This document shows, in pieces, positions 9,240 to 49,416 of a DNA stretch of 64,000 bases. Location: positions 19,048 to 83,047 of the forward strand of contig CACALG010000001.1 in NCBI GenBank assembly GCA_902533295.1, given 5' to 3'. The notes under the pieces were generated by a model. The model ran no database searches, had not been told where the DNA came from, and saw only the letters and a list, made by a program, of their open reading frames with translations. The DNA comes from an uncultured marine group III euryarchaeote (GTDB lineage Archaea; Thermoplasmatota; Poseidoniia; MGIII; CG-Epi1). A program made the translations under genes and the position numbers. The first letter of the stretch is position 1. Every line of letters starts with the position of its first letter.

Positions 9240-10707
<1,468 letters not shown>

Positions 10708-10989: not shown

Positions 10990-13900
10990 TTAAACCTTAA
11001 CTTGAAATTGTTGCCCAGGCTGTAATCCAGCAGGTATTGCAACAGTTACAACACGACCATCTGGTGCCTTAATTTGAATCTGCTGTCCTGGTTGTGCTCC
11101 AGCAGGTACTGCTACATTCAGAACGGTTCCTCCAGGAGCTGGTGCAGGCGGAGCTGCAGGTTCAGGGGCAGGTGGTTGTTCTGGAACTGGTGCAGGAGGT
11201 GCTGCTGCAGGTTCAGGGACTGGTGGTTGTTCTGGAACTGGTGCAGGAGGTGCTGCTGCAGGTTCAGGGACTGGTGGTTGTTCTGGAATTGGTGCAGGAG
11301 GTGCTGCTGGTGGTTGCTCAGTTATTGGAGGTGCAGCAGGCGGTTGTTCTGGTAATTCACCACCGAAAGCATCCAGTGAATCTCCAGAAGACTTAGATCT
11401 AGAATAGAAAAAGTATCCAGCTCCAGCTCCAACTAATACTACAGCTCCTGCCCCGGCTAAAACGATTGGATTAAATGATTCTGATGATCCTCCCCCTGTA
11501 ACTTCACTTTCTTTGAGTGTTCCTGAAACAGCTATTTTTACGATTTCAGAATCATCATTTAGAGCATCCTGTGGGCCCAATGCAGGTATTACACTATCTC
11601 TGTTAATTCTAACTTTTAGAGTTAGTTCACCATCATAAGGATCTGGTAATATATGTATTATTTGAACTTCAAGTGAACCAAAACCATCTATTGTAAAGTT
11701 TCCATCATTACCAGGATAAGTATCATCGTCCAAAGTGACTACAGAACCAAATTCTAACAATTCAAGAGTTCCACTAGCTGAAGCTCCCCCTTCGTTTGCC
11801 AAAAATATTTTTAGAGTAACCTCATCTCCTTCGCCAGCATTCATAGGAATTGCCATGAGACTTGTGATTGCGAGACTTGGTGGAGTGGAAATTTCCACTC
11901 TATTATTTGTATCAGAGAAAATAAGTTCCTCTGAATCCCAAAATTGCTCTCCACTATTTTTAGCATTGATATCTCTGATTGATAACTCAAATGTCCAGAA
12001 GCCTGTAAAATCAGAATTTCCACCAGATAGGAAAGAAACTGAAGGATAATTCTCATTAAAAGTGATTATTGTCTCTTCATTAGCAGGTAATTCTATGGAA
12101 CCATAACTGTCAACAATACCTGCAAAATTAACTTGGAGGTCTTTTCCAGATTTTGTAAGGCTAATTTCAGCATTTGCAGTTACATCAAAAGAACCTTCAT
12201 TCATTACATGGATTTTTGCATAAGCAATTGAACCATCACTAAATGAGACAAGTTCATTGCCATTCTCATCCTCCCAAACAATCTGAGTAACTATCAAATT
12301 AGGCAATTTTTTAATATCAATATCAACTTCTTCATCAAACAGTACACCTTCTTCAGAATCTTCTAACATTATATACAATTTTTCTACATTAGCAGTAGGT
12401 GTGATCTCTCCTTGGAAAGTTTTTGTCTCATCTACATCAACTTTTGTTTGAGGCTCAATAGTTATGATATTGTCTTCATCATCACTATCATCCCAATACA
12501 AAGTAGTTGTAATCTCTCCATATTTTTCACCATCATTCTCAATTTCTAAACTCCATGTATTCGCTATTCCTTCAACAAGCATATCTCCAAATTCAATATT
12601 GTAAGTAATATCGGGAGATGCAGATGAAACCAATATTGATTGTGAAACACTATCTTCGGCACCCTGACTACTGTCTTCTGGTAAAGAATCTACAATTTCT
12701 GCAGTTATTGTGTGTTCTCCCTCAGGTATATCTCTCCAGGTTGTAGTCACTGTTTTAGATTCCCCTCCTGTTACTCCATCTATATTAGCTGTAGCAATCA
12801 AATCCCCTCCATTTCTGAATTCTACGGTTACTCTTGCATCACCTTCCCCGTCATTTGATATGACTGCTGAAATAATTACATCATTACCTTCCACTAATTC
12901 TCCGGAAAATGATAGATCATCTATTGATAAATCTGCATCAGTAGTCAAGATATTTAGATCAGTAAGTTTTACTCTTCCAGGAGTTTCAGAATTTAATTTT
13001 AGTATTGCTTCAGCTTCCAAATCATCACTATTCTCTATCACTGCATTAAGTGCACTGACTAGCCCATTTGTACTGACGTGAATCACGGCATCATATTCAA
13101 TACTCAATTCACTAAAACCTACAGTACCTTTAGATGAACTACCCACAGTCATTACAATTTCAGTCATTTCTACACCATATTCATCAACAATAGTGTCACC
13201 ATTGTCTATTGCATCTTGTAATGCTTCTTGTAGGGCATTTTTCAAAGATTTTATTCCACCGGATTCACCCCATGTTTGCGGAGAATTTTCACTGTTTAAT
13301 TCACCAGCCCATTCCCAATCATTATTATTTGTAATTTTAATGTATGGATCCTCTGGGTAATCATCACTAAGAGTGCTTCTTACATAGATATTTTTGTCCG
13401 TATCCTCGCCACCAGAAATATCTGTTTCTTCAGTAAATGCAAAGTATGTTTTATCTCCAACTACCATATCCATGCGGTGATATTTTGCAACTAGTTGCTC
13501 ATTGTCATAATCAGTAATCTCGAAGCTGTCAGACCATGAACCTCCATCATCCTGGGTAAAAGCGAAATAGTAATCATACGAGCCTCCGGAAGCATATTGA
13601 TATGAAATATATGTAAAACCAGAACCACTAGCAATACTTGGTAATGCAAGCGTAGTACTAGTATCGGTATCTATTGCAATTGTAACATCGTTCCATGTTT
13701 CTCCATTGTCATTGGATACTGCCCAAACAATATCATAATCACTTGAACCATCTCCATCATAATCTCCACTGTCTACCCAAGCTACATACAATTTTGATCC
13801 TTCAGCACTAATAACGGGAGTATATGAGTAATAAGCAGTTGTTCCTTCATTTAAATAGACTAAATCAGCCCAGGAACTTCCATCAGTACTATATGTGTAA

Positions 13901-16248: not shown

Positions 16249-16986
16249 ATGACTGAACAATACCACATGAATTCCCATGAAGGCACATATACTAGGGAAT
16301 TTGAGGCTAAAGTAGAGGCTACATTCCCAGGCATCATCGAACTAGATAAGACTGCATTCTATCCATTGGGAGGGGGCCAACCCTCAGATATTGGAACAAT
16401 AACTTGGAATGAAGGAGATGCAAATGTTACTGATGTGAGGAAAAAAAATCGAATTAGGCACATTGTAGAAGGAGATTTACCAGAAGTTGGAGATTCCATA
16501 AAAGGTAATCTTGACTGGTCACGAAGATATTCACATATGAGAATGCATACTTCTCAACATTTAGTTTCTGCTGTAGTGAATGAAATATATGGTTCAGATA
16601 CCGTAGGAAATCAGATAGGAAATGAGAAGTCTAGAATAGATTTTAAGCCTTTAAAAATAAACCAAACTGAGCTTAATGAAGTAGAGGACAAAGTCAATGA
16701 TTACATATCTAAAGACTTGAAAGTTACTATATCTGAGGAATTACGGTCCAATTTAGAAAATAATCCAGATATCCGTTCAAGTATGTCTAGTGGTCTTTGG
16801 AAAATGTTACCGAAAAGTGTTACAGAATTAAGAGTAATAACCATAGGTGATATCGATGTTTGTCCATGCGCAGGCACTCATGTAAAAAGCTTAAAGGAAA
16901 TAGGTAATGTTTCTTTTATTAAAAGAGATAATAAGGGTTCTGAAAAATTAAGATTAACATATAATCTAGGCGATATCGACTCTTGA
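16249..16986 (+). CDS. alaX: AlaX-type Ala-tRNA editing protein (tRNA synthetase second additional domain)
   Basis: The zinc/editing motifs HTSQHLVS (HxxxH) and CPCAGTHV (CxxxH) sit at the spacing expected for free-standing AlaX. Confidence 0.8.
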   Translation: MTEQYHMNSHEGTYTREFEAKVEATFPGIIELDKTAFYPLGGGQPSDIGTITWNEGDANVTDVRKKNRIRHIVEGDLPEVGDSIKGNLDWSRRYSHMRMHTSQHLVSAVVNEIYGSDTVGNQIGNEKSRIDFKPLKINQTELNEVEDKVNDYISKDLKVTISEELRSNLENNPDIRSSMSSGLWKMLPKSVTELRVITIGDIDVCPCAGTHVKSLKEIGNVSFIKRDNKGSEKLRLTYNLGDIDS

Positions 16987-19900
16987 ATTTGTAAGGCCCT
17001 CTCTGTCCTTTTGTTCATACATCATTTTAATTTCTACAGAAGTTGCAGCATTACTTTTTTGTTGCATTTTTAGTTTAAATTGTACTTCGTTATATGAAGA
17101 TATATCACCCACAATAAACGAGTTATCTGAGAATGAATAATATACATCTGGATCTATACCTACTAATCCTAAGATGCTACTATTGAATTCTGGACTTATT
17201 TTACAACTACTAATAGTTTCAGATGAATAATTACTGAGATTTACGTTCAAAGTTATATTTGTACCGAGTTTTTCGTATGATGATGTAATAACAATTTCTT
17301 TTTCAGTGAAGTAATTGTCAACCATTTCTCTTGTAGATGCAATTGTTTCATCAATTATTGGGTTCAGATAAATTTTTACCTGCTTTACACTCTCGGCATC
17401 TCCATTCCAATTTGCTAGGGTTGGATTAATTGTTTCTATAGCTCTAACGGCATTAATCAGCTTCCCTTTGAACATATTATCTATTTCTCCATAAATTACA
17501 GCAGCAAGATAGGAATGTTCTCCTCTCTGTAGAATGATTTTATTATTACCATAGTCTATGGAACCCAGATCTCCTTCAGTTTGAAATGAGTCTTGAACAA
17601 AATCATTGATTGCTGTGAGCATCCCGCTCATGATATCTGTATCAGTTTTAACTTCAACAGCACTAACATTTCTAAGAAGCCTTCCATCTTTGTAAATTAA
17701 ATATAATTCTTCAACTTTATACTTAGCAATAGGTTTTGATTCAATAATAGATACATTTTCATCTAATTCTTCTTTCCTAGATCGGTATAGTAAAACACCA
17801 CCAAACATTAAGAAAAGAAGACTTATACCTATAGTAGCAGGTAAAATTTCTTTCATTCCAAATTGATCAGTTTCTGTACCTGAGGAACTATATAATTTGA
17901 CTACTTCTTCCATACTTACTGTTTCATTATTAGAATTGCTAATGTGACCGAATTCATCTTCTATTGTGATTCTATAAAAATAATCTCTGTCTGGACTTGG
18001 ATTCTTATGAATCCATTCATAATAACCTTGTTTACAGGAAGTTTCCATACCAACTCCTATTATTTCTTGTGTGAACCATCCACTATCTGAAGCAGGTAAT
18101 TCATCAGCTACCATTTGTACTTTACAAATAGCGGCATCTTCAGGAATAACAAAACCTAAAACCAATTCTGTAGCATTAGTATGCGATATTGCAACATTTG
18201 TAGCTTTCTGAGGGTCCTCTGTAAATACTTCAAAAGTTAAATGAACTCCTGAATAATCAATTTTTATGTTGTTATTACCTGTAATATCCTCAGTTGGTAC
18301 AAAACCTCCATTTGAAGTTCCACCAAATTGAATAGTCTTATTGATTATATCTAAATAATATTCATCTACTAACAATTTATTTTTGTTCATTCCTCTAACT
18401 AATGCTTTTTCATATATTCCATCTAAATCATTATCTACACTAACATTAAACCAATGGATATCATTAATTGCTGGAATATATTTCAAATTGAAACTTTGAT
18501 CATATTGCCCATTGGAACTGAAATATTCAGTAGTATCTAGTGGATTCTCAAGATTGCCTGCAAGATCACGACTTTCAGCATACAGGAAATATCGTGTATT
18601 ATCTTGCAAGTCCTGTAATTTAATTTTATCATCAGAGATATCATGAGGTAATAAATACCAAGTTAATAGATCATTACCTTTCTCTATAGTCTGTATTGCA
18701 ATATATATCTTATAATCTAGATTTAGATTATCTGTATCTATGAAGATTTCTAGATAATCATATCCCCATTTTTGAGGTACATTTGAGAAAGAAATGGTAT
18801 CTACTTTCGATGCATAATTCATTATTATATCATATTCTTCTTTATCCTCACTATTTCCGGCATAATCACTAGCCAGAATTTTAAATGCATAATGACCTAA
18901 TTCATCAAATTCATAAATATAGTGCGTGTCTCCATAAATATTTATTGAATCCAGAGCTGTCCAAGTAACTGAATTAGGATCTAAATTAGCATTTGTAAAA
19001 TTAGAATAGGAAACCTCTAGAGTATTATACGCAATATCATCTGCACTATTCTTCCACGATAAATCTATTTGACTATTGCCTATGAAATAATAATCCTCTT
19101 CAAAATTCAAAAGTTCGGTGGAAGGTATGGATGTATCAATCTTAACTTGATACTCGTAATTATTCTTATTCTCTGTGTTTCCATAAATATCTCTAGCTAA
19201 TGATCTAAACCGATATTCCTTACCATCTTCGCCAGTAAACAATACAATTGATTCTGTAAACGTGCCATATTCTTCCCATTGGGCAAATTTATCATTTACT
19301 ATATACTCAATAATATATTCTTTGAAATCATTATCATCATTCAAAAGAGATATTTGTAACTCAATAGATTCTGAATTAATTAATCCAGTTCCGGGAATTA
19401 TCTCTGATTGTGGTGATGTTGTATCCAATAATGCTAAAAGTGTGTGATTATAGGATAAATTTTTGTATATTTCTACCATAATGTCATTATTATAATAAAT
19501 AATTCTTATGGGATTATAATTAATTTCATTTTGATCGGCAGCTTTGCTAATTACATTTATCATATAATAATCGGAAAAACCATAGTTATCAGTTTGTGAA
19601 TCAACCAGTTTACTTCCAAAAGAATTTTCGATATCAAAACCATGCTCTCTTGAACCAGTGCCCCGCTCATCAGCTATATTAATTTGCAAATTGTAGCGGA
19701 TCAAATAATCAGTATCACGACAATTAAAATCATTGTTTTGTAAAGTAGAATCACTGTCAATTAAGTCCAAACAAAAATCTCCTTCTGAGAATATATTATT
19801 ATCTATTGATATAGTACTATTAAATGAATAAATAGCTTTTTCAAAATCGTTAAAGACATTGTTTAAAATATTTATATCTGATCTATAAGAGCTTACTGAT

Positions 19901-22128
19901 TGTGTATTATTCGTTAATATATTATTTGAAATTCTTCCTTCACTATTATTTGCAGTTATAGCTATTTCCGAAAAATTAATAATATTGTCTTCTAAGTCAA
20001 AATCTGCAAGAACGACAGTTATAGATTCTCTAAAATTCGTTATTATATTATCACTAACTTCGACTTCACCTTCCTGCGAAAAAATACCTACTGCAGCAAC
20101 TTTTTGTAAATAAAGAACATCACATCTATCATGTGTGCATAATCCGGTTACATTATTATTAACTATTTTACTATATGTCCTGTTACTAAGAATACCATAA
20201 TCATTTACATGCAATATATTATCTTCAATAAGTATAGGAAACGTACTATCCTCAAATCCTCCTACTTCGATACCCACTGCCGAACTTAATGTATTATTTT
20301 TAATTATAGTTTTTGGAATATAATATGCATAAATTCCTGATAATTGTGATTCAGGACTCATGTTTGTTTGAACTGTATTATTTGCAATATATCCTTCTTC
20401 AACATCTCTGAACATTATGCCAGCACCATCGATAGAATGAACAAGATTATTTGTTACATGTATATTATCAATTGTAAATGCTGAACCAAACTGAGTATAT
20501 GCAGATATTCCATTATATTTTATATTTTTGAGTGTGTTATTAGCGACAATACCATTTGATATGTCGCCAAAACCATTATCATATATCCAAATTCCTATAG
20601 ACGCATTATCAATATAATTATCCACTATAGTAAAATTTTTGTAGAAATTCCAAACCGTTATTGCTCTTGCTGATGTATTAGTAATATAATTTGAAATTAT
20701 ATGATTATCAGTTCCTACATCATTATATACATTTTCAAAATCAAGCGCTATTGGAAAGTCATTATCATTGATGGTATTATTTATTATATAATTTCCAGAA
20801 GGTGATATACCTCCTTCAGGCCAACCCCAAAGTCCTATAGCTTGCCATCCTATTTCAAAATTATTATTTCTTATAGTATTATTGTTCTGAAATGAATTAA
20901 TAAAAATAGCAATTGTGTAATTTTCAAAGTAATTATTTTCGATTAAATGACCTCCACCATAATATTCATCTGTATCAAAATCCCAGAACCAGAAAATCAT
21001 ACAACTATGCCCCCAATAGGGTTGTTTAGACCCGCAATTTATGAATGTATTATTACTGTATTCATTTCTATTTCCTGCACGATCCATAAGATTGTGCCAA
21101 TATACGCCAGAAACATTGAATATGTTGCGGCTAATTATATTGTCATCTGTAGCTTGTAGAGACATATCATGTATTGTATTATTTAGAAATTGGTTATCAA
21201 TTATTGTATGATTACTGCCTTGAGTTATAGTAAGCGTACCTCTGCCTCCCTGTCCATTATCCTTGTAAATATAATCTCTAAAGATGTTACCACTAATTAG
21301 ATTATAATTCCCATAGGAAATAGTTACACCTAATGTACCGTTAATGAAAGTATTATTTTGTATTAAGGCGTTCTCTCCTGAGACAAACAAGTCATAGAAT
21401 ATGTAACTATTATAAATCGTGTTATTAATAAATCTAAAATTATCAGTATAAGCACTAATTATTCCAATCATATCAAATGTGGAATTAGTTATGTAAGATC
21501 CAGCTCCAGTAAATCTTAATGCCTTTACATACTCAAAATCAGAATTCTCAATAATTACCCTAGTATTAGGAATTCCTGAGCCTGGCTGATTATTTACTAA
21601 TCTGCCTACTTGAACAGTATAATCTAACCTCTCTGTGTAATTCCCTTTACCAATTATATTAGATTTAATAACGGAACGATCATTACTAGTTGTCGGATTC
21701 AAATCATAATCTGTAACAATTAGTACAGAATTCTCATTTAAATCAAGACAATTAGCAGTTATTTCACTATTCTTTTGAATAGAATCAAGTATTAATTCAG
21801 AATTAATTATGGTCAGTGTACTGTATAATGATATATTGTCACCATGTGAATCTTGTTCATGAAATACTGTAGAATTAATCCATCTGGTTTCTCCTCTAAT
21901 TTCAATGAAACCTTTTGATGATAGAGAAACGTTTTCAAGTTTCAAAGTCTTACCAAAATTAACGACAATATCTTTGACTGAGACGTCCTCATCCCAAACA
22001 TGCGTGTCTTGAGTGATAATCCAATCCTGACCCTCTTGGGGTGCATTTCCATTTGAACCTGCTGAAGCATTTCCAGTACTGATTACTATCGCAGTAATTG
22101 CGATTAAAAGAAATGCTGTTTTCTTCAT
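16966..22128 (-). CDS. Giant surface protein (1720 aa): signal peptide, Asn-rich right-handed beta-helix (PbH1-like) repeats, Ig/Fn3-like region, one TM helix, cytoplasmic roadblock-like domain plus a beta-rich C-terminal domain
   Basis: N-terminal AFLLIAITAIVISTGNASA. Hundreds of residues carry periodic NNT/NN.I/GI.. beta-helix signatures (e.g. IQNNTFINGTLGVTISYGNYNLISGNIF). The TM helix is ILPATIGISLLFLMFGGVLLY (about 17785-17847), followed by a 270-aa tail. Confidence 0.75.
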   Translation of the reverse strand: MKKTAFLLIAITAIVISTGNASAGSNGNAPQEGQDWIITQDTHVWDEDVSVKDIVVNFGKTLKLENVSLSSKGFIEIRGETRWINSTVFHEQDSHGDNISLYSTLTIINSELILDSIQKNSEITANCLDLNENSVLIVTDYDLNPTTSNDRSVIKSNIIGKGNYTERLDYTVQVGRLVNNQPGSGIPNTRVIIENSDFEYVKALRFTGAGSYITNSTFDMIGIISAYTDNFRFINNTIYNSYIFYDLFVSGENALIQNNTFINGTLGVTISYGNYNLISGNIFRDYIYKDNGQGGRGTLTITQGSNHTIIDNQFLNNTIHDMSLQATDDNIISRNIFNVSGVYWHNLMDRAGNRNEYSNNTFINCGSKQPYWGHSCMIFWFWDFDTDEYYGGGHLIENNYFENYTIAIFINSFQNNNTIRNNNFEIGWQAIGLWGWPEGGISPSGNYIINNTINDNDFPIALDFENVYNDVGTDNHIISNYITNTSARAITVWNFYKNFTIVDNYIDNASIGIWIYDNGFGDISNGIVANNTLKNIKYNGISAYTQFGSAFTIDNIHVTNNLVHSIDGAGIMFRDVEEGYIANNTVQTNMSPESQLSGIYAYYIPKTIIKNNTLSSAVGIEVGGFEDSTFPILIEDNILHVNDYGILSNRTYSKIVNNNVTGLCTHDRCDVLYLQKVAAVGIFSQEGEVEVSDNIITNFRESITVVLADFDLEDNIINFSEIAITANNSEGRISNNILTNNTQSVSSYRSDINILNNVFNDFEKAIYSFNSTISIDNNIFSEGDFCLDLIDSDSTLQNNDFNCRDTDYLIRYNLQINIADERGTGSREHGFDIENSFGSKLVDSQTDNYGFSDYYMINVISKAADQNEINYNPIRIIYYNNDIMVEIYKNLSYNHTLLALLDTTSPQSEIIPGTGLINSESIELQISLLNDDNDFKEYIIEYIVNDKFAQWEEYGTFTESIVLFTGEDGKEYRFRSLARDIYGNTENKNNYEYQVKIDTSIPSTELLNFEEDYYFIGNSQIDLSWKNSADDIAYNTLEVSYSNFTNANLDPNSVTWTALDSINIYGDTHYIYEFDELGHYAFKILASDYAGNSEDKEEYDIIMNYASKVDTISFSNVPQKWGYDYLEIFIDTDNLNLDYKIYIAIQTIEKGNDLLTWYLLPHDISDDKIKLQDLQDNTRYFLYAESRDLAGNLENPLDTTEYFSSNGQYDQSFNLKYIPAINDIHWFNVSVDNDLDGIYEKALVRGMNKNKLLVDEYYLDIINKTIQFGGTSNGGFVPTEDITGNNNIKIDYSGVHLTFEVFTEDPQKATNVAISHTNATELVLGFVIPEDAAICKVQMVADELPASDSGWFTQEIIGVGMETSCKQGYYEWIHKNPSPDRDYFYRITIEDEFGHISNSNNETVSMEEVVKLYSSSGTETDQFGMKEILPATIGISLLFLMFGGVLLYRSRKEELDENVSIIESKPIAKYKVEELYLIYKDGRLLRNVSAVEVKTDTDIMSGMLTAINDFVQDSFQTEGDLGSIDYGNNKIILQRGEHSYLAAVIYGEIDNMFKGKLINAVRAIETINPTLANWNGDAESVKQVKIYLNPIIDETIASTREMVDNYFTEKEIVITSSYEKLGTNITLNVNLSNYSSETISSCKISPEFNSSILGLVGIDPDVYYSFSDNSFIVGDISSYNEVQFKLKMQQKSNAATSVEIKMMYEQKDREGLTNSRVDIA

Positions 22129-35872: not shown

Positions 35873-38437
35873 CTAATCCTTTTCCTTTCCACCCTGCTGA
35901 ATTATTTCACCAGTTTGTGAATCATAAGTATTACCAGTTACTGGATCATATCTAAAACCAGATTGTTTACTTGGAATCTGATTAGTGGAAGAAGTACCTG
36001 TATCATAATCATCAAAATAATCACCACCATCACCTAAGCGACTGTAAGCAAATATTCCAAGGCCTGCAACAGTTAAAACACCTAATGGAATCCAAATCAA
36101 AGGTTGATTAATTAATGAATCTTCTTCTTCTTCTTCCACCTCAATAATTTCTATCTCTTCCTCTACAGCAACCGTAACTTCTGCGGAAACGCGATTATCT
36201 AATTCATTAAACTCATCAATTATATTATCAGGATCAATCACTGCTTCGATGTAATAAAGTCCAGGTTCAGTGGGTTTCCAATAGAAAACTCTCACTTCCT
36301 CACCATTGACACGTCCCAAAGGTTTTGTTTGATATATATCAACTAATTCACCATCAATAAAGAGAGAAATTTCAGCTCCAATACACTCTTCTGAAGAGTT
36401 ATCAAAAGAAATACCAAATGGACATTCACAACAAATTTCAGGACCGAAATTTATAGCACTAATTTCTATCTCCAAAGTTTGATTCAAATATATCATACTT
36501 GGAATGTCTCCCATCTCGACAGATAATTGGAAATTTCGTGGTTTAACATTGATTGATAAATTTATTTTATTATCTGTTAAATTCAAATCTTCAAAGTCGC
36601 TGTTTGTTATCACTGCCTCTATTGTAATATTGTGAAGACCATCCATTGTTGTTGTCCTCCAGAAGACAGTTACAAATCGAATTTCTTCATAAGCTAAATT
36701 TTCTTGGGGAACATTGTAGATTGCATTACCTTCAAAATCATAAGTCTGTACTTCAGGTGAAGTGGAATTATCCAAGTAAACCAATAAATGGAATGATGGA
36801 ATTTTAGCCATATTATTCCTTACCTGAACAACCATTTCAACATTATCTCCACGAAATACAGTATCAACAGCATCAACAGATACTAAGGTCAAATCATAGT
36901 CCGGAGCGGCTACGTTGATTAGCATAGATTTTACATTATTAGAATCATCTAATTCTTCAATCTCCTTCGCTGAATCTGCATGCCCTGCTACGCTTGGTTG
37001 CTGCTCATCCCAAGTATATTCACCCGTAATATTGTAAAATTCCCCTTCATTCAAATTTAGAATCCAAGAATCAATAACTTCTCCATCAATTCTCAACTCA
37101 ATAGGGCAATTAGTGATATCCTGTGCTCCTTTGTTAAAGGCTGTAATTATTATATCCGAAGGCATACCTCTAACAGCTTGACCTACTACTGAAATCTCAT
37201 GGATGGTGATATCTGGTTTAGATTCTAGAACGACTAAGCTAAAAGTAAAATTATTATCTTCTTCATCCCATTCTTCAATTTCATTCAAAGGGTCAATTCT
37301 TATAATAATTGTATGGTTACCGATAATCTCTGTACCAGAACCTGCATCCCATGTTACAGTAGCTGGTTCAGTTGCAGATACTATCTCTTCTCCTACCCTT
37401 GTAGCATTATCCATATTACTAATGATACTATAACCAATTAGTGACTCAGCACCTCCCTCTGGTATATCATAAAACCCTACACGTACATTCTCAGCTCCAA
37501 CAACATAATCATCATTAAAAATATGAACTGTTAATTTAACAGAATGTTGGTCAAATACATCTTCCAACCAAGTGTCATCAGGATTTATTGTAATATTACG
37601 AGATTCATCTAAGGTTAACTCAGGTGTGTGTGCTCTGACTTGAACTGTAGCCTCATAAGTGTTGTCATCTTCCACAAATTCATCAATATCGTCATCAGAA
37701 TCTAGAACAATCGTAATCGTAAATTCTCCTATTCCATCAGGTTGCCATGTTATATTGTACTGACCAGAATCACCAGCCCCAATTATAGTTCTAACTTGGG
37801 GATTAGAAATTGTATTTGTTTGACCATCAAGTGTTTGACGAAATTCAATATTGAAATTTGTACAATCATCACGGCCATTATTATCAAAAAGAACTAAAAT
37901 ATCAACTGAATCTCCCTCTGCGGGATTTTCAGGTGTAAACATGATATTCAATTCCGCAGGTAGTGGTCTAAGATTTGCTAGAGGACCAGGAGGCACAGGA
38001 TATATGGTATATTCATATACGATTTTGTTATTATCTTCATCTGTTTCAATAATCTCGTCATCATAGTCCACAGAGATAGTCAAGACACGATCGCCAAATC
38101 CGCCGCACTCACTTGCACCACAAGTAATATCAATTATCGCAATCCTTTCATTACCAATAACTGGCTCAGTTTGTTCATGGATAGGAATACATTCATCTTC
38201 TGGATCACATTCAGAGGTACTATTCCATACAATAATTTTTACATCAGTAGCAGGATTTATAGGATCATGATTGACAACTTCGAAATATATTTCTAATTCT
38301 TCTCCTTGAAGAGGAAAATCTGGTGAAAACGTAAAATTAACTGGTTCTAGGTCTATAGCTTCGGCATCTCCTGTAAATAAGAACAGAACCAATACAGCCC
38401 CAAAAACGGTCACAATTGCACTCGTCAACCTTTTCAT
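35873..38437 (-). CDS. Surface protein (854 aa) made of CARDB-like Ig repeats; signal peptide and C-terminal TM anchor
   Basis: N-terminal AIVTVFGAVLVLFLF. About seven ~100-aa modules end in D(D/E)(D/S)NN-type motifs (DEDNNKIVYEY, EDDNTYEATVQV, EEDNNFTFSLVV, DDSNNVKSMLINV, ELDNRVSAEVTV). An E-rich linker precedes the TM helix LIWIPLGVLTVAGLGIFAY. Confidence 0.7.
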   Translation of the reverse strand: MKRLTSAIVTVFGAVLVLFLFTGDAEAIDLEPVNFTFSPDFPLQGEELEIYFEVVNHDPINPATDVKIIVWNSTSECDPEDECIPIHEQTEPVIGNERIAIIDITCGASECGGFGDRVLTISVDYDDEIIETDEDNNKIVYEYTIYPVPPGPLANLRPLPAELNIMFTPENPAEGDSVDILVLFDNNGRDDCTNFNIEFRQTLDGQTNTISNPQVRTIIGAGDSGQYNITWQPDGIGEFTITIVLDSDDDIDEFVEDDNTYEATVQVRAHTPELTLDESRNITINPDDTWLEDVFDQHSVKLTVHIFNDDYVVGAENVRVGFYDIPEGGAESLIGYSIISNMDNATRVGEEIVSATEPATVTWDAGSGTEIIGNHTIIIRIDPLNEIEEWDEEDNNFTFSLVVLESKPDITIHEISVVGQAVRGMPSDIIITAFNKGAQDITNCPIELRIDGEVIDSWILNLNEGEFYNITGEYTWDEQQPSVAGHADSAKEIEELDDSNNVKSMLINVAAPDYDLTLVSVDAVDTVFRGDNVEMVVQVRNNMAKIPSFHLLVYLDNSTSPEVQTYDFEGNAIYNVPQENLAYEEIRFVTVFWRTTTMDGLHNITIEAVITNSDFEDLNLTDNKINLSINVKPRNFQLSVEMGDIPSMIYLNQTLEIEISAINFGPEICCECPFGISFDNSSEECIGAEISLFIDGELVDIYQTKPLGRVNGEEVRVFYWKPTEPGLYYIEAVIDPDNIIDEFNELDNRVSAEVTVAVEEEIEIIEVEEEEEDSLINQPLIWIPLGVLTVAGLGIFAYSRLGDGGDYFDDYDTGTSSTNQIPSKQSGFRYDPVTGNTYDSQTGEIIQQGGKEKD

Positions 38438-42238: not shown

Positions 42239-44332
42239 CTAATTTTCTTTATCATCACTCATTTTTTTTCTGAGCTGTTCAACAGAAACCGAAATTTTCT
42301 TTTCAGGAATGGATTCTGCGCCTTGGGTAAATTCTTCAACCTCTTCAACTTCCTCATTAAAATCACCAACGTCTTCAATATCTGATGAATCATCATCAAA
42401 AACTTCAACCGCTGACTCAGCGACATCCTCTTCTCCAATATTTTTAGAAATAGCATAATCTCCATCACTACCTTGTCCCACAGCAATATCCCCGCTTTCG
42501 ATATCCTCTGCCAATTGCATGCGCTTTTCTGAACTAGCATCATCCACTATTTCCTCTAACAATTCCTCTGGTGAAAGCTCCTCCTCCACTTCTGGAAATT
42601 CCTCATCTTCTGTCTCAATAAGTTCATCTAAATCTAATTCAACTTCCTCATTATACAAGAATTCTGGCATTTCAGGAGCTACCGCACCTGGTGTAGCTAT
42701 TGCATCATAAAATTCAAAAGCCGTCCTCTCAACCTCTTCCACAAATTCTTCTAAATCTTCTTCCCCTATTCTAGAATAGATAGTAGCCATTCTATCTGCA
42801 ATGAATGCAAAGTAATTCGGTGCAACTTCAAATGCTTTTTCAGTCCATGTAAATGGAATCCATGCCATAACTTGCTTATTTTTAGGATCTACTGTTATTT
42901 TTAATTGAGGACCAGGATAAATTATACCACCGCAGGAAACATCATAATTATTCATATATGCTAAAACTTTGTACACATCTTCTTGTTTTGGTGTTTCAGT
43001 TAAATTATATTTGGCCTCAAAATAGAAATTGACTTTCTTATAATTCATGAAAATTTCAGGCCTTCCTGAACCCTGAACAGGATTGGTCTTAGTGTCTGAT
43101 TCAGCAAAAAGTGAACCCATTATTGAATCGCTCCAGCCTTGCCTTACTTGTTCTGGTGCATCATATTTCAATACTACATCTTTATTTTTAGATCTAAACT
43201 CACGAAGTGATTTAGCATGTGCACTTAATTTTAATCCTGATGCCATCTCACAGAGAATCCATAGAGCATAAATATCTGTCATCTTTTGTGTCTGTACAAG
43301 TACTGTTTCTTCATAATATGATTGGTACTCATCTAAAAACTCTCTCCACAAAGGGGGCAATTCTCTGTAAGAACGATTTCTACTCCAAGTTTTAGCTTCG
43401 ATAAGTGCTTCTCTATTAATTAAACGCTGCTCTTTACGAGTAGCCTTAGCAGTAGGTATTAATTCTGCTAATTTCCCATCACCTAAGACCTGTTTATGGA
43501 ATTTACATGCCATATCTAACTTATCCAATTGCTCCTTAACTGAATCATTAGGGGGCTGATATTCTTTGCCATAAATTGCAGACCAAGCTTTCTTTTCCCT
43601 TTCTCTTCTATCCATTTCATCTCTAAAAAAGATAGCTTCAATGAAAACTTCCATATGGAATTTTACAAGAAGGATGTTAGTGGGTGTACTCCATCTCCTC
43701 TTTCGGATATCTGTTACATGAGCAGTAGCATATTCTGTACCTTTTTGAGCACGAGCAAGAGCCGTTTTTTGCCACCTTACTGCACCCCTTATCTGGGATT
43801 TCATAGTCTTTCTTTCAACTTCTACTTTGTAAGTGTAAGCTCCTTTTCGGATATCATTTGTAACTTTCAACAATTTTCCAGAAAATTCTAATAATTGTTC
43901 AATATTAAGTAATATTTTCTCCTCTTCAATTGATGATGTCCCACCAGGATACATGTCTTCGGGCGGATCATCGGCTCCAGAATTCTTAACCAAATCAGGA
44001 ATATGAACATCTCGTAATTCTTTGAAGCTCTCATAATCTAACATCTTAGGAGCTATCACAACTTCTAGCTTGTTTGAAACCGAACTTCCATCTTTACTGT
44101 GCAAACTTATAGTGTTAGTTCCAATATAGTCTGGCACTACAAACTGTAGAGAATGTGTTGTATTTGATCTAACTGGAGGTAATGAATCAACTTTAGCACT
44201 ACCTACTCTGATATGCACATCTTCTAATGCCTTGAAAGCATTAACATTCAACATAACTGATTCACCCTCAGTCAAATTCTCAGAATGACCCTCTGGTAAT
44301 CTGAGATCTATAGTTGCATCTGGTAAACTCAT
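42239..44332 (-). CDS. McrC-like PD-(D/E)xK nuclease subunit (DUF2357/DUF524-like) with a ~175-aa acidic C-terminal tail
   Basis: RPE(426)-x12-E(439)AK(441)Y is encoded at 43007-43065 and followed by EDVYKVLAYMNNYD. The gene sits 1 nt downstream of the McrB-like gene, in the canonical B-then-C order. Confidence 0.7.
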   Translation of the reverse strand: MSLPDATIDLRLPEGHSENLTEGESVMLNVNAFKALEDVHIRVGSAKVDSLPPVRSNTTHSLQFVVPDYIGTNTISLHSKDGSSVSNKLEVVIAPKMLDYESFKELRDVHIPDLVKNSGADDPPEDMYPGGTSSIEEEKILLNIEQLLEFSGKLLKVTNDIRKGAYTYKVEVERKTMKSQIRGAVRWQKTALARAQKGTEYATAHVTDIRKRRWSTPTNILLVKFHMEVFIEAIFFRDEMDRREREKKAWSAIYGKEYQPPNDSVKEQLDKLDMACKFHKQVLGDGKLAELIPTAKATRKEQRLINREALIEAKTWSRNRSYRELPPLWREFLDEYQSYYEETVLVQTQKMTDIYALWILCEMASGLKLSAHAKSLREFRSKNKDVVLKYDAPEQVRQGWSDSIMGSLFAESDTKTNPVQGSGRPEIFMNYKKVNFYFEAKYNLTETPKQEDVYKVLAYMNNYDVSCGGIIYPGPQLKITVDPKNKQVMAWIPFTWTEKAFEVAPNYFAFIADRMATIYSRIGEEDLEEFVEEVERTAFEFYDAIATPGAVAPEMPEFLYNEEVELDLDELIETEDEEFPEVEEELSPEELLEEIVDDASSEKRMQLAEDIESGDIAVGQGSDGDYAISKNIGEEDVAESAVEVFDDDSSDIEDVGDFNEEVEEVEEFTQGAESIPEKKISVSVEQLRKKMSDDKEN

Positions 44333-44333
44333 A

Positions 44334-47243
44334 TCAACCGAATACGCTTAAACCTGGTGAATCAACCATTTTCTCTAAGGTATTGCTTATGCCGTGGTCT
44401 TGACCAAGAACTTCTTGAGCTTTTAGCATTAAACATTTTAGCTCATTTCTTTCCAATCCTTCCAATGCAGGCATTATATTGGATTTAATTACATCCTCTA
44501 ATGCTCTATCTAAATCATATTGCCCTCGAGAATTAAAGACAGTCAACATTGAATCTATAATTACTGCAGGACCAATCTTTCTATAAGTTCTAACACCTCT
44601 TGCAATTTCATCATCTCTAGATTGAGGTAACTCTTCTTCCTCCAAGAAATTCATAAATTTATTGAATGCTTTGAACATTGTCCCATCATCATCATAAAAG
44701 TCAAACATTTCTTTGGCATACCAATCCTCCTCTTCACTGTCCTCAGGCCTATCAGGTGCAATTCCCAACTTATTCAGTTTATTGAACACAAATATAGGCA
44801 TACGTCTGTACTCATCATCTCTATCAGGAAGACCAATTTCAACGAAAGCAAATCTTCTCATTAAAGCGTGACCCACATTGAAAAGAGTATTCTTATCTTG
44901 AGTATTCATAGTTCCAATTATTCTGAATTCTGGTGGCATCATAAACGGAGCCCCGCCAGTCTCTTTTGCTGTAAGAAGTGCTTGCTTGTCCCTGTACTCA
45001 AACACCGTAAATAATTTACCAAAAGCTTCATCGATATTTGCTCTATTAAACTCATCGATTACTAAATAATGAGGTTTGCCATCCTCTTGCATTGTTTTTT
45101 CACAACTCTTTGCAGCATCTGCAACATAACCATCTTTGAAAAAATAACCTCCTGAATCATCTGGTGAGATACCACCAATAACTTCGAAATTAGACCATTC
45201 TGCATTTGCAGTTACAATGGTGTAATTAGGAATAGGACTGCCGTCTTTTCCCTCTTTGACTCCACATATTTGACTCAGCAAAAGATTAGCTAATGCTGTT
45301 TTACCAGTACCTGGATCTCCATACAACATTATGTTTCTACCAGATTTAAGGTGTGTTACTGTCTGATTAATAGTATCTTCAGTCGTTGAATAATATTTTG
45401 ATAATTCTTCATAGTCAACATTGTAATCGACTTTCATTGCTTTTCGAATCTTTGGAGATTCAGCTAATTCTTCTTTCAAATCCTTTTCTAAATCATCTAA
45501 GTGAGAAAGATCAGCTCCATAATTTTCATCCTCTGTTGGCTTGATGTCTATTGTTGCTTCAGGAAATTCTGAAAGAAGCCTATCCATTGCATCTTCTAAA
45601 CTAATTTCTTTAGGTGTTGATGATGATGGAGTTTCGTCAGATTTTGGCCCATCTTCTGCCTCAAAAGAAGAATCGAAGGGATCTGAGGAAGGGGGACTAG
45701 ATAATTGCATTTCCATCATTTTATCTCTGAATTTCTCTGCACCAAATTGCCAACCATACCATATAGCACCTCCAGAAACTATGAGTGGAATTAGAAACAT
45801 AGCCCATTCTTCACTCGATTCAGGAGATGAAATATCTGAACCTGAAAGTAAAGCAGGAGCAATCATTGTTGCGAATAAAGTGCCTATTCCTGCTACAAAT
45901 AATCCAAAATAAGCAAACCCTTCCATGCTTTCTTCGGATTTCCTTTTCCGGTAAAATAAGAATACACCCAAAAATGTAATAACCATAAACAAAACAGTAA
46001 GAATCCAGTCTCCCTGTTCAAAATAAAAATTAGCCCCATTACGTAATAAATTCCATAACAATACAATGTACTGGAATCCAAGACCAAACAATATGAAGAA
46101 GAAATATTTTGCTTCTTCCATATCTTTCAAACGAATTGTTTGAAGAATATAGGCTGCAATACCTATCAAAAGAGCTAAAACACCAAGCATTAAAACTAGC
46201 ATTTCACCCGCTTGAAGATTAAGCATCACTGTTGCAGTTCCCATTGGTGGGTCTGCGGATGCACAAGCAGATTGAAGATCTGGGATTGTACTATCGTATG
46301 ATCCAACTGCGTCACATGAAGCCCATGGTCCACGCACCCAATTATGGTGTATAGATCCAAATACTAATGAACCGGCTCCCACAAAGGAATAAATTGTACT
46401 CAGTGGAGCCTCTCCAATGTCTTTTCCAGTTACTGCATACAAAAATACGATATAAGATACAATAATTATTATTAGAGAAGACGTCGCTCCTAGAGATGAA
46501 TAAAATCCATCTAGTGCACCTTTTGGATATGTCTCATTAATGAATGACTCACCTTCTGTAAGCTTTTCATCATTTGCGCTAGAATATCCACCGCCTACAT
46601 AAACATAAATAATAAGCATCACAAAAACACACAGAATTAATGGAGCCATGATATTACTATCATTAATCCGTCTTGCTTGTATCATAATTAATAGAGCAAG
46701 GAGCGTAAGCAAACCAAAAACAGACTGAAATTGATGAGTATCTACTTTGAAATCGGATGTATCAAAATTATCTCCTTCACCGACACGACCCCCCGGTCCA
46801 TTATTCAAAACCAACGGACATCCATCTTTATCTCCACGAACATCTATATCCGACCAACCTGGACACACAAGTGGGTTATTATCATCAGTCCAACCAAGTA
46901 AAGTCAACTGCGCTTTTTCTTCATCAGTTAACTCTTGTTCTATCTCGCTATTTGACTCTGGAGCCTCATCATTGTAATGTGGGATGTCTCCTGTTGTATA
47001 ATACAAAATCAAACCTAAGAGGGCAACAGCAATCAAAAATTGTAAAGCTGGCAAGTAAAAACTAGGTTTAGTTTTGATTAAAGGTGGTTTAGAAGTTGCA
47101 GCAGGCTTACCTTCAGATTTAGAAACTGGTGTCTCCACTTGAGAAGGACCTGAATCCTTAGCTCCAGACAGATTTACACCGCAAATATTACAGAATGGTG
47201 CATTATCTTCAACATCTACAGCACAGACTGGGCACTTTTTCAT
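44334..47243 (-). CDS. McrB-type AAA+ GTPase fused to an N-terminal zinc ribbon and a ~10-TM membrane domain (969 aa)
   Basis: Zinc ribbon CPVC-x13-CNIC (about 47178-47234). About ten hydrophobic helices span residues ~62-500 (about 45744-47060). The AAA+ module lies at about 44829-45371: GDPGTGKT, YLVIDEFNRA, IIGTMNTQDKN (NxxD), ALMRRFAFVEI. Confidence 0.75.
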   Translation of the reverse strand: MKKCPVCAVDVEDNAPFCNICGVNLSGAKDSGPSQVETPVSKSEGKPAATSKPPLIKTKPSFYLPALQFLIAVALLGLILYYTTGDIPHYNDEAPESNSEIEQELTDEEKAQLTLLGWTDDNNPLVCPGWSDIDVRGDKDGCPLVLNNGPGGRVGEGDNFDTSDFKVDTHQFQSVFGLLTLLALLIMIQARRINDSNIMAPLILCVFVMLIIYVYVGGGYSSANDEKLTEGESFINETYPKGALDGFYSSLGATSSLIIIIVSYIVFLYAVTGKDIGEAPLSTIYSFVGAGSLVFGSIHHNWVRGPWASCDAVGSYDSTIPDLQSACASADPPMGTATVMLNLQAGEMLVLMLGVLALLIGIAAYILQTIRLKDMEEAKYFFFILFGLGFQYIVLLWNLLRNGANFYFEQGDWILTVLFMVITFLGVFLFYRKRKSEESMEGFAYFGLFVAGIGTLFATMIAPALLSGSDISSPESSEEWAMFLIPLIVSGGAIWYGWQFGAEKFRDKMMEMQLSSPPSSDPFDSSFEAEDGPKSDETPSSSTPKEISLEDAMDRLLSEFPEATIDIKPTEDENYGADLSHLDDLEKDLKEELAESPKIRKAMKVDYNVDYEELSKYYSTTEDTINQTVTHLKSGRNIMLYGDPGTGKTALANLLLSQICGVKEGKDGSPIPNYTIVTANAEWSNFEVIGGISPDDSGGYFFKDGYVADAAKSCEKTMQEDGKPHYLVIDEFNRANIDEAFGKLFTVFEYRDKQALLTAKETGGAPFMMPPEFRIIGTMNTQDKNTLFNVGHALMRRFAFVEIGLPDRDDEYRRMPIFVFNKLNKLGIAPDRPEDSEEEDWYAKEMFDFYDDDGTMFKAFNKFMNFLEEEELPQSRDDEIARGVRTYRKIGPAVIIDSMLTVFNSRGQYDLDRALEDVIKSNIMPALEGLERNELKCLMLKAQEVLGQDHGISNTLEKMVDSPGLSVFG

Positions 47244-47972: not shown

Positions 47973-48706
47973 CCTACAAAACCACCGATAAGGGCATATT
48001 AATTACAGACGAAAGATTAGCTGCACAAATATACAATAAAGGAAAAACAGGAACTACCCAGGAAAAAGGTAACCTGTTATTAAGGCCTGAAGAAGCATTA
48101 TATTGCGATTATCGAGGTGATTTTGAGCTTTCAGATAACGAGAGAAAGAAATTCATGTCAAATAATTATACAGTTTACAGAGATCTAAAAGAACGTGGTT
48201 TAATAGTAAAAATTGATGATTTTGGCCTAAGAGTTTATGACCGAAAAACTGAAACTAAAGGACAAGCATCTGCAATTGTTTTGCCTAAAAATTTCGACGA
48301 AAAAATAGATTTTAGCAATATTTTTAATGAACTGGAAAAGGGACTTGAGAGAAGAGTCCAAATTGGAATAATAGATTCTGACAATGATGTAGTATATTAT
48401 GTGATTAAAGGCATCAAATGGGATGAAACTAAACTAAAAGAAGGTCAAAAAAGTACAATTACAGACAAGGAAGTTCAAGAACTACTCGAGAAAGGATACC
48501 AAATAAATTCTGGATTAAAATTTGGAACACATTACAGAGTCTACAACTATGAGTCAAATCATGCCCCTTGGCTAATACACGTCATAAAAGAAGGAATTAA
48601 TTGGTTAGATATTGCAAGAATGGTACGTGTAGGTCATGGTGTCAATAAGACAATAGTTTTAGCATACAAACAGAAATGGCTTAGTATTGAATGGATTAAA
48701 CCTTGA
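47969..48706 (+). CDS. endA: tRNA-splicing endonuclease EndA (two-unit, alpha2-like); start codon unresolved
   Basis: Catalytic unit SGLKFGTHYRVY...HAPWLIHV...RVGHGVNKT, preceded by a degenerate first unit (FGLRVYDRK...IIDSDNDVVYYVIKG). The conserved N-terminal domain (GILITDERLAAQIYNKG...LLLRPEEALYCDYRG) is encoded upstream of the first ATG (48155), in a frame open from 47960. Confidence 0.8.
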   Translation: MTYKTTDKGILITDERLAAQIYNKGKTGTTQEKGNLLLRPEEALYCDYRGDFELSDNERKKFMSNNYTVYRDLKERGLIVKIDDFGLRVYDRKTETKGQASAIVLPKNFDEKIDFSNIFNELEKGLERRVQIGIIDSDNDVVYYVIKGIKWDETKLKEGQKSTITDKEVQELLEKGYQINSGLKFGTHYRVYNYESNHAPWLIHVIKEGINWLDIARMVRVGHGVNKTIVLAYKQKWLSIEWIKP

Positions 48707-49416
48707 TAGTTGGACTCTACACCAAAGATTTTGCTTTACTTAACAATATCACAAATAAGATAAAAGATCAAAAAATTAAACTTCGCCACCTAGATAATCT
48801 TTCAAATTTAGGAAAGGATTTGCAAATAATTATTTCTAAAAGAAGAATTAAGAATTGTAAAATACCTCAAATACAACCTGAAAATTTGGACGTTCTAGAA
48901 TTGAAATTAAGATGTAAACTATATACCTGTTCTGGTTTAGTAATAGGAATAGATCCTGGTGGCATGATTGGCCTATCTGCAATAGGTACTGGTAGAATAT
49001 TGTTCATGAATACTTATGATAATCCTAATGATTTAGCCATAATTGTTAAATCTATATATTTAGAAATAGGGCTAAAAGCGATTAAGATTGGATTAGGGTC
49101 TCCACCTGAGAGAACAAGAATATTAGACGTACTCAAAGAATATTCAAGTATCATTCAATTAGTCAATGAGCAAAATAGTGGAAGTGGGAGTCATACTGAA
49201 GCTGCAACAATAATTGCTTTGCGCCAAGGTAAATATAATTTAGATGAAAAATACAGACCTAAGGATGGAGAAATATCATGGATTCAGAAGGAATCAAGAA
49301 GATTATCAAAAGGATTAGTTACAATAGACAAAGAACTTGCTCATGAAATACTAATTGGGGAAAAGACTATGGATGAAGCCATAAAAATTTACACAAAAAA
49401 AATGAAACTTCGGTAA
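48703..49416 (+). CDS. Hypothetical protein, possibly an RNase H-fold (RuvC/YqgF-like) nuclease
   Basis: GLVIGIDPGGMIGLSAIG resembles the first strand and acidic residue of RNase H-like nucleases. The TTG start overlaps the endA stop (TTGA). The call is weak. Confidence 0.35.
   Translation: MIVGLYTKDFALLNNITNKIKDQKIKLRHLDNLSNLGKDLQIIISKRRIKNCKIPQIQPENLDVLELKLRCKLYTCSGLVIGIDPGGMIGLSAIGTGRILFMNTYDNPNDLAIIVKSIYLEIGLKAIKIGLGSPPERTRILDVLKEYSSIIQLVNEQNSGSGSHTEAATIIALRQGKYNLDEKYRPKDGEISWIQKESRRLSKGLVTIDKELAHEILIGEKTMDEAIKIYTKKMKLR

Follow-up and report, generated by a model that had tools for sequence, protein, structure and literature searches.

Gene Organization of the TM-McrB Locus

The DNA analysed here (the window) is a stretch of 64,000 nt from contig CACALG010000001.1 of assembly GCA_902533295.1, and its host lineage is Marine Group III (MGIII) of the class Poseidoniia. 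Two adjacent genes on the minus strand of the window encode a 969-aa protein, named TM-McrB here, and a 697-aa partner (Table 1). The first is a McrB-type AAA+ NTPase in which a zinc ribbon and a membrane domain of 10 transmembrane (TM) helices stand in place of the N-terminal reader domain, and the second is a McrC homologue. McrBC is the textbook modification-dependent restriction system and, to our knowledge, related genes have until now been assigned to defence. Full-text searches of the literature did not turn up any account of a polytopic-membrane McrB or of the MGIII gene pair.

The stop codon of TM-McrB and the start codon of the partner gene are separated by a single nucleotide (TGA-T-ATG), so that the partner gene is probably translationally coupled. 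The archaeal gap gene, encoding glyceraldehyde-3-phosphate dehydrogenase (GAPDH), starts 27 nt downstream of the partner gene on the same strand, and a GINS-like gene with a TTG start at 47277 is divergent from TM-McrB at a distance of 33 nt. This layout agreed with the first-pass annotation of the window, which had described two minus-strand genes 1 nt apart, gap 27 nt downstream and a divergent GINS gene about 35 nt upstream. The correct lineage is Marine Group III of the Poseidoniia and not MGII/Poseidoniales proper.

The genes within 10 kb of the pair encode adenylosuccinate lyase, a THUMP protein, PanE, GAPDH, GINS, a tRNA-splicing endonuclease and an ABC/FtsX transporter. Among the annotated neighbours within 10 kb there were no defence genes, methyltransferases included, and no HEPN, helicase or signal-peptidase partner genes. 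The local G+C content of 0.36 was the same as in the rest of the window and was unremarkable. AT-rich TATA-like elements were seen, by eye only, upstream of gap and upstream of TM-McrB, and a scan for sigma-70 promoters and terminators, which is not applicable to archaea, gave nothing above chance.

Table 1. Coordinates of the gene pair, its domains and related proteins. Positions are those of the window unless a locus is named; AF2, AlphaFold2; ORF, open reading frame; pLDDT, predicted local distance difference test.
Feature	Position	Strand	Basis or remark
TM-McrB gene, 969 aa: zinc ribbon, 10-TM domain, acidic linker, McrB-type AAA+ GTPase module	44334..47243	-	ORF list
N-terminal zinc ribbon, aa 1-25, CPVC-x10-CNIC	47169..47243	-	weak Pfam Zn_Ribbon_1 match
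Polytopic membrane domain, aa 60-512, 10 TM helices, N-in/C-in	45708..47066	-	hydropathy, AF2 helices, loop charges
Acidic linker, aa 513-600 (88 residues), probably disordered	45444..45707	-	25 D+E against 8 K+R; low pLDDT in a poor model
McrB-type AAA+ GTPase module and C-terminal helical region, aa 601-969	44337..45443	-	Pfam AAA_5, PDB matches
McrC-like partner gene, 697 aa, 1-nt spacer to TM-McrB	42239..44332	-	ORF list
Ig-like N-terminal beta-sandwich, aa 1-94	44051..44332	-	AF2 model
Central helical/beta region with long helices, aa 100-335, putative McrB-binding (DUF2357-like) domain	43328..44035	-	most conserved part of the partner
PD-(D/E)xK-fold nuclease-like domain, aa 339-495	42848..43318	-	AF2 alpha/beta fold, hhalign, Pfam matches of relatives
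E362, further putative catalytic residue	43247-43249	-	invariant in MGIII
Putative catalytic motif E426-x12-E439-A-K441	43010..43057	-	aligned to McrC D244/D257/K259 (hhalign)
C-terminal acidic low-complexity tail, aa 546-697, 36% D+E	42242..42697	-	composition
TPR and double AAA+ proteins, 1015-1101 aa, beside or near the partner	L047 4680-7952; L043 1700-4747; L040 2866-6171		housekeeping surroundings

The AAA+ Module of TM-McrB

Residues 637-798 of the 969-aa protein matched Pfam AAA_5 with an E value of 1e-18. The motifs GDPGTGKT (642, Walker A), YLVIDEFNRA (726, Walker B), IIGTMNTQDKN (775) and ALMRRFAFVEI (793) were all present where the first-pass annotation had placed them, and Walker A, Walker B (DEFNRA), NTQD and RRF were invariant in all MGIII loci; the module had column identities of 0.9-0.97. 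In a phmmer search of PDB sequences, the sole significant matches were McrB chains of E. coli (6hz4, 6ut6 and 7vsr) and Thermococcus gammatolerans (6ut3 and 6ut5), with E values from 4e-17 to 2e-15 and alignments spanning Walker A, DEFNRA, MNTxD and RRF; the rest was noise. Similarity to E. coli McrB was remote (64 bits, E 4e-17). The best NCBIfam model was also McrB, with 61.5 bits against an equivalog cut-off of 637, and because this score lies far under the cut-off, the 969-aa protein is a relative within the McrB family and not an orthologue of EcoKMcrB. The second model was GvpN (cut-off 266.8).

Assignment to the MoxR/RavA, GvpN or dynein type was rejected on scores, since GvpN reached 30.4 bits against 61.5 bits for McrB and no MoxR appeared among the NCBIfam or PDB matches. 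The placement in the McrB branch proposed at first pass therefore stood. The signature linked to GTP specificity is NTQD, which is of the NxxD type, and the use of GTP is predicted from this motif. No specific defence-system model of PADLOC matched either protein, and the 969-aa protein gave weak matches in its AAA+ region to REase_II and other P-loop models.

The Zinc Ribbon, Membrane Domain and Linker

The four cysteines of the zinc ribbon were kept in every MGIII orthologue. The TM helices of the membrane domain, from 63-84 to 477-512, were located by hydropathy, and the helices of an AF2 model agreed with them. The loop charges (positive-inside) fit an N-in/C-in topology, so both the zinc ribbon and the AAA+ module are predicted to be cytoplasmic. 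The loops of the membrane domain contain the conserved motifs CPxW/GCP, HHNWVRGPW, RLKDMEEAKYF and YRKRKSEESMEG, of which CPxW/GCP, together with a second cysteine pair, falls in predicted outside loops. Identity in the membrane domain was 57-70% within MGIII, below that of the AAA+ module, and yet these specific loops were kept.

No Pfam family matched the membrane domain. Its homologues in a word-indexed search were all MGIII-like, and the full-length ones carried AAA_5. Pfam also gave no signal for kinship with LPG_synthase_TM, which is encoded beside one bacterial homologue of the partner, and found no modified-DNA reader domain (DUF3578/EVE/YTH-like and similar) in residues 1-600. The earlier proposal that a zinc ribbon and a polytopic membrane domain occupy the position of the N-terminal reader was thus upheld by the 10 TM helices and by the lack of a Pfam reader domain.

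The Partner Is a McrC Homologue

The 697-aa partner had no direct match in Pfam, PADLOC, NCBIfam or PDB sequences, and PDB profile searches with two alignments of the partner family (A1 and A5) returned only noise. Its homology to McrC was demonstrated through distant relatives, a fold search and hhalign. The partner family is small, since phmmer, run exhaustively over 1.84 billion cluster representatives, recovered only 33 relatives; two of three other homologue searches were filled with relatives more than 79% identical, and the distant relatives came from the exhaustive run. Six of 17 relatives matched Pfam McrBC (PF10117) and five matched PDDEXK_7 (PF04411), and a bacterial-type subgroup, aligned at full length in A1, carried the canonical E...RPD...LDVKY. 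The AF2 model built on A1 had a mean pLDDT of 80, with the acidic tail outside the model. McrC chains were its top fold matches in Foldseek, with alignments spanning 429-491 columns, and hhalign aligned the nuclease-like domain to residues 241-314 of E. coli McrC. The McrC-like character first suggested for the partner was therefore confirmed by fold and by transitive sequence evidence.

In the central region, residues 100-253 were 0.93, 0.69 and 0.60 identical to the window in three MGIII clades, respectively, which exceeded the conservation of the nuclease-like domain. We infer that the central region is the McrB-binding domain, and the conservation of residues 100-253 would fit a primary role of the partner in binding and activating the GTPase ring. 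Within MGIII, the acidic tail kept its composition (23-36% D+E) and not its sequence, and it was absent from the partner relatives outside MGIII.

The partner carries RPE at 424-426, EAKY at 439-442 and EDVYKVLAYMNNYD at 451. In the AF2 model, E426 opens one strand and E439-A-K441 closes the next, and C-terminal helices follow the alpha/beta domain. The spacing E426-x12-E439-x-K441 equals D244-x12-D257-x-K259 of E. coli McrC, as had been noted at first pass. E362, P425, E426 and E439 were invariant across the 33 MGIII sequences with a visible motif, while position 441 was occupied by K in 28 of them, by Q in 3 (L025-L027) and by R in 2 (L034 and L035). The ExK position of the other archaeal relatives read DTYY, DADY, DTIY, ITLY, EPNY, NSHY and DADY, and in one of them (P0210, QPG..ITLY) PE has changed to PG, so that the site is clearly lost while the GTPase is intact. 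Conservation of the E-x12-ExK residues among orthologues, on which the first-pass annotation had relied, thus held for the acidic residues E426 and E439, but not for K441, replaced in 5 of the 33, nor for the sister archaea, in which the motif is degenerate. This evolutionary pattern suggests that the partner fold and the acidic residues persist, that the lysine is not essential and that the nuclease chemistry may be under relaxed constraint.

Distribution, Synteny and Conservation in MGIII

One genome per GTDB species was scanned with two peptide patterns that are tuned to the MGIII clade, so the scan is silent on absence elsewhere. It recovered 36 loci, all from metagenome-assembled genomes (MAGs) and single-amplified genomes of MGIII/Poseidoniia (for example AH-321-L02 and the CG-Epi1 lineage), and the core status of the pair rests on these loci from species-representative genomes. 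A few contigs with the gene pair were deposited under bacterial names (L022; P0007, P0188 and P0166: Nitrospina, SAR86 and Marinimicrobia), which is probably due to mis-binning.

According to tblastn with ten window proteins, ABC, orf, EndA and GINS lie on one strand, followed by TM-McrB, partner and gap, and then by panE and THUMP. The order EndA-GINS <> TM-McrB-partner-gap was the same in 36/36 loci as far as the contigs reach, two divergent clades included, and a TM-McrB orthologue was present in every MGIII locus whose contig reaches its position. Because the features of the pair recur in 36 independent loci, they are not due to chance. The two genes are thus syntenic in related genomes and, with synteny kept wherever the contigs allow a view, the pair does not represent a recently inserted island; both points had been anticipated at first pass.

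In two MAGs, the TM-McrB gene was split by a frameshift into two overlapping ORFs (L025 5210-7998; L009 4974-7996), which is either an assembly error or a pseudogene. Such split genes speak for an artefact, in which a misassembly or a wrong ORF call would have joined a membrane protein gene to a McrB gene. However, more than 25 independent assemblies, made in different studies, carry the fusion without interruption, starting alike (MKKCPVC) and joined at the same point, and we regard an artefact as extremely improbable.

In the main clade, identities to the window were 87-96%, 73-87%, 80-95%, 56-78% and 60-84% for the AAA+ module, the partner, gap, GINS and EndA, respectively. The corresponding values in clade 2 (L025-L030) were 73-76%, 52-61%, 47-49%, 43-46% and 26-32%. 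In clade 3 (L034 and L035), the AAA+ module was 61-63% identical, the partner 47-48%, GINS 23-24% and EndA, seen in part, 35-47%, and gap was not seen. The GTPase module is therefore no less constrained than GAPDH, and in the divergent clades it is far more so, at 74% against 48%. No relatives of the partner were found in IMG/VR, in PLSDB plasmids or in INPHARED phages, and plasmid McrB-like ATPases were only 28-31% identical to the AAA+ module of the window. The pair showed none of the defence-gene traits of patchy distribution, defence-island or mobile context and rapid turnover.

These results bear on the explanation that the pair is a working type IV restriction system fixed in the lineage, in which the membrane domain positions the GTPase-nuclease at the site of foreign-DNA entry, or senses that entry, and the McrC-like subunit cuts. 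We judge this explanation unlikely, if well worth considering. The homology to McrB and McrC is real and the canonical NxxD GTPase motif is present, but no modified-base reader domain accompanies them. E362/E426/E439/K441 are found in the window and in 28/33 MGIII sequences, but 5 species have another residue in place of the lysine, sister lineages with an intact GTPase have a degenerate motif, and a tail some 150 residues long, 36% of them acidic, would be odd on a DNA-cutting subunit. The conserved extracellular loops, the four conserved cysteines and the HHNW motif exceed the needs of a simple anchor, as a sensor at the envelope might require. On the other hand, synteny across the order and an AAA+ module more conserved than GAPDH are the opposite of what patchy, fast-turnover defence genes show, and neither a methyltransferase or other defence neighbour nor a specific PADLOC match was found. 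The suggestion made at first pass, that the pair surveys incoming DNA as a restriction system, fits poorly with two genes that are fixed, syntenic and conserved and have no defence neighbours or mobile copies.

Relatives outside MGIII

The contexts of the distant partners were read on their encoding contigs. In four sister loci of Thermoplasmatota (L043, L047, L040 and L044), the partner family was 25-35% identical to that of the window. In L043 (Thermoplasmata archaeon, RLF47253.1) and L047, the gene directly ahead of the partner encodes a protein of 1015-1090 aa, which consists of TPR repeats, a degenerate AAA+ domain (Walker B HKIE) and an intact AAA+ domain of the window's subfamily. L040 encodes a protein of the same TPR/degenerate AAA+/AAA+ build 1.8 kb upstream of the partner. 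In the protein of L047, the TPR repeats and the first AAA+ domain flank an EVE domain (PF01878, E 8e-9, above the Pfam cut-off), and this is the only sister protein in which Pfam confirmed an EVE domain. A 547-aa ORF of L047, which has the same length as the partner, proved to be unrelated to it. The TPR/AAA+/AAA+ proteins and their partner look like an undescribed McrBC-derived system in its own right.

In L044, a 462-aa AAA+ protein with 55% identity to the window module (E 2e-142) precedes the partner, and directly upstream of this AAA+ gene lies the gene of a double zinc-ribbon protein of 137 aa. These belong to a cluster of five same-strand genes (L044 4097-10329) between RNA polymerase/Sec61-beta and FtsY/prefoldin genes; the cluster encodes a membrane-anchored TSP3 surface protein, the double zinc-ribbon protein, the AAA+ protein, the partner, whose nuclease motif is dead, and a DnaJ-CXXCXGXG-like protein of 217 aa. 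No AAA+ gene was visible next to the partner in L001 and L048. The surroundings of the partner in L040 and L043 include a PKD surface protein and an archaeosortase-like gene.

The AAA+ module of the window ends in LSVFG (window 44337-44351). The same end was found in L044, with the variants ...TIFA and ...SVFT in L043 and L040, and all AAA+ proteins of the subfamily formed by the window, L044, L043 and L040 share a conserved end ...[LS][ST][VI]F[GAT]. Its conservation suggests that this C-terminus may be a docking tail.

Among the bacterial relatives, L042 has a partner with the canonical PD..DxK beside a soluble 845-aa AAA_5 protein, which is 38% identical to the window module (E 1e-64), and the two genes adjoin a PhdYeFM/ParE toxin-antitoxin pair. 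L042 thus resembles a normal defence-type pair beside a toxin-antitoxin module, which speaks for a restriction function. The bacterial partners of L038/L039, L045 and L046 had no AAA+ neighbour. In L038 (5510-9560) and L039 (1572-5622), a partner with the canonical PD..DxK stands directly behind genes for two LPG_synthase_TM proteins (PF03706), PMT_2 and membrane glycosyltransferases.

Several of these contexts raise the question of whether the complex acts on nucleic acids at all. The AAA+ ring could be a remodelling or assembly machine acting on a membrane or surface complex, or on its own membrane domain, with the McrC-like protein solely as an adaptor and GTPase activator that retains a fossil nuclease fold. 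Models for such a machine are MoxR/RavA-ViaA, NorQ-NorD and GvpN, and GvpN was the second-best NCBIfam match. The sister GTPases carry TPR repeats, a protein-protein interaction module, but one of them also carries the EVE domain, a nucleic-acid reader. The dead nuclease motif of P0210 beside an intact GTPase agrees with a fossil fold, whereas E362, E426 and E439 are invariant in MGIII. The TSP3 surface protein and the DnaJ-type CXXCXGXG protein of L044, the PKD and archaeosortase-like genes of L040 and L043, and the bacterial partner found behind LPG_synthase_TM and glycosyltransferase genes without an AAA+ gene all speak for such a machine; however, these associations are single cases and inconsistent between loci. 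We therefore consider a role away from nucleic acids improbable.

Comparison with Known Systems

The pair is in the McrB and McrC families by sequence and fold, but it lacks two defining traits of type IV restriction, a modified-DNA reader and the behaviour of a defence gene. It shares with McrBC (EcoKMcrBC and that of T. gammatolerans; 6hz4, 6ut6 and 6ut3/5/7) the two-gene operon, the combination of a McrB-type GTPase and a McrC-type partner, and the identical catalytic spacing. It differs in that the reader is replaced by the zinc ribbon and the 10-TM domain, in that the partner has an extra Ig-like N-terminal domain, long helical insertions and an acidic tail, in that E takes the place of D at the acidic positions and the lysine varies, and in that the MGIII pair is core, syntenic and strongly conserved instead of patchy and mobile.

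Non-canonical fusions and an Ig-like N-terminal domain of McrC are also known from the McrBC relatives CoCoNuT and CoCoPALM. Their CnuC/McrC homologues carry an N-terminal Ig-like beta-sandwich and helical insertions in DUF2357, several of their types keep an inactivated PD-(D/E)xK fold, and the CoCoPALM GTPase has a transmembrane and coiled-coil segment, similar to FtsB, as its fusion partner (Bell et al., eLife 2024, PMC11090510). These systems have an NxD motif and coiled-coil fusions, are bacterial and 'nearly absent in archaea', and lie in defence-type neighbourhoods with HEPN, helicase or signal-peptidase partners (PMC11090510). Membership of the MGIII pair was rejected because of its NxxD motif (NTQD), its polytopic 10-TM domain, its archaeal host and housekeeping neighbours, and because none of their partner genes were found.

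The sister Thermoplasmatota systems have the AAA+ subfamily, the partner family and the housekeeping surroundings in common with the MGIII pair, but lack the membrane domain and the acidic tail, and the catalytic residues of their partners are degenerate. MoxR/RavA, NorQ/CbbQ and GvpN resemble TM-McrB in the AAA_5 fold and in having a dedicated partner, and some of them act at membranes or membrane complexes; their partners are VWA proteins, however, while the MGIII partner has a PD-(D/E)xK fold. In the membrane-anchored defence systems Zorya and Kiwa, a membrane complex works with a cytoplasmic effector that targets DNA close to its point of entry, and these systems are patchy and mobile with separate membrane and effector proteins. 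They share this concept with the restriction function proposed at first pass for the MGIII pair and have no known homology to it.

Other Features of the Window

A 237-aa ORF (48703-49416, plus strand) shares 4 nt with the end of the tRNA-splicing endonuclease gene, has a weak match to DUF460 only and is syntenic in most MGIII loci. A complete archaeal 16S rRNA gene was found at 9240-10707 on the minus strand (1504 bits); the 64 kb of the window contain no 23S rRNA gene, so that the rRNA genes are unlinked. The minus strand also encodes two very large predicted surface proteins at 10990-16197 and 16966-22128, one of 1735 aa (BNR, CARDB) and one of 1720 aa (beta-helix, NosD, cohesin), respectively. 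An 854-aa protein with three CARDB domains is encoded at 35873-38437, also on the minus strand.

Proposed Function and Evolutionary History

The reading that we favour, with middling confidence and from sequence comparison, is that the two proteins form a McrBC-derived, membrane-tethered GTPase complex that has been domesticated as a core machine of MGIII, is vertically inherited and probably still handles nucleic acid. The function is most likely still nucleic-acid handling because one sister keeps an EVE reader and most MGIII keep the acidic/lysine triad. Possible roles of such a membrane-sited machine include coupling the handling of chromosome, RNA or protein to the envelope.

In the McrBC of E. 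coli and T. gammatolerans, a hexameric GTPase ring is plugged by McrC, which stimulates GTP hydrolysis. By analogy with these solved complexes, six AAA+ modules of TM-McrB would assemble into a ring, and about 60 TM helices would hold it below the membrane via the 88-residue acidic linkers. The conserved central domain of the partner would plug the pore of this ring and stimulate GTP hydrolysis.

As to its history, we tentatively propose, with somewhat less confidence, an early domestication of McrBC in Thermoplasmatota into an essential-grade GTPase machine, that is, a non-defence McrBC, which was later welded to a polytopic membrane domain in MGIII. A McrBC-type pair with a soluble reader domain would have been taken into Thermoplasmatota, where the GTPase may have come under strong constraint as the nuclease chemistry relaxed. 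Within MGIII, the N-terminal reader or TPR part would then have given way to the zinc ribbon and 10-TM domain, and an acidic tail would have been added to the partner. The complex would thereby have left mobile type IV restriction and taken on a constitutive, membrane-sited function.

Several points weigh against domestication. The AF2 model of the full-length 969-aa protein was poor (pLDDT 43) and gives no guidance on the role of the membrane domain. Defence systems can occasionally become fixed in a lineage, and synteny alone is weak functional evidence, because MGIII genomes, as the syntenic block of about 10 genes shows, undergo little rearrangement. A sensor of infection at the envelope is another role that the conserved extracellular loops, with their paired cysteines, would fit. 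Most of the MGIII sequences, as counted above, have an intact E/E/K triad, and active enzymes exist in which the catalytic lysine is replaced by Q or E, namely BglII (K-to-Q) and BamHI (K-to-E), so that nuclease activity, and hence restriction, may persist in MGIII.

Abundant uncultured marine archaea thus have a pair of McrB and McrC relatives fixed at one locus and conserved like glycolytic and replication genes. If the pair were a working restriction enzyme, it would represent a likewise undescribed type IV system, embedded in the membrane and fixed in the lineage. If it has been domesticated, it would provide a concrete case of a defence system turned into archaeal core cell biology and a new membrane-coupled AAA+ architecture.

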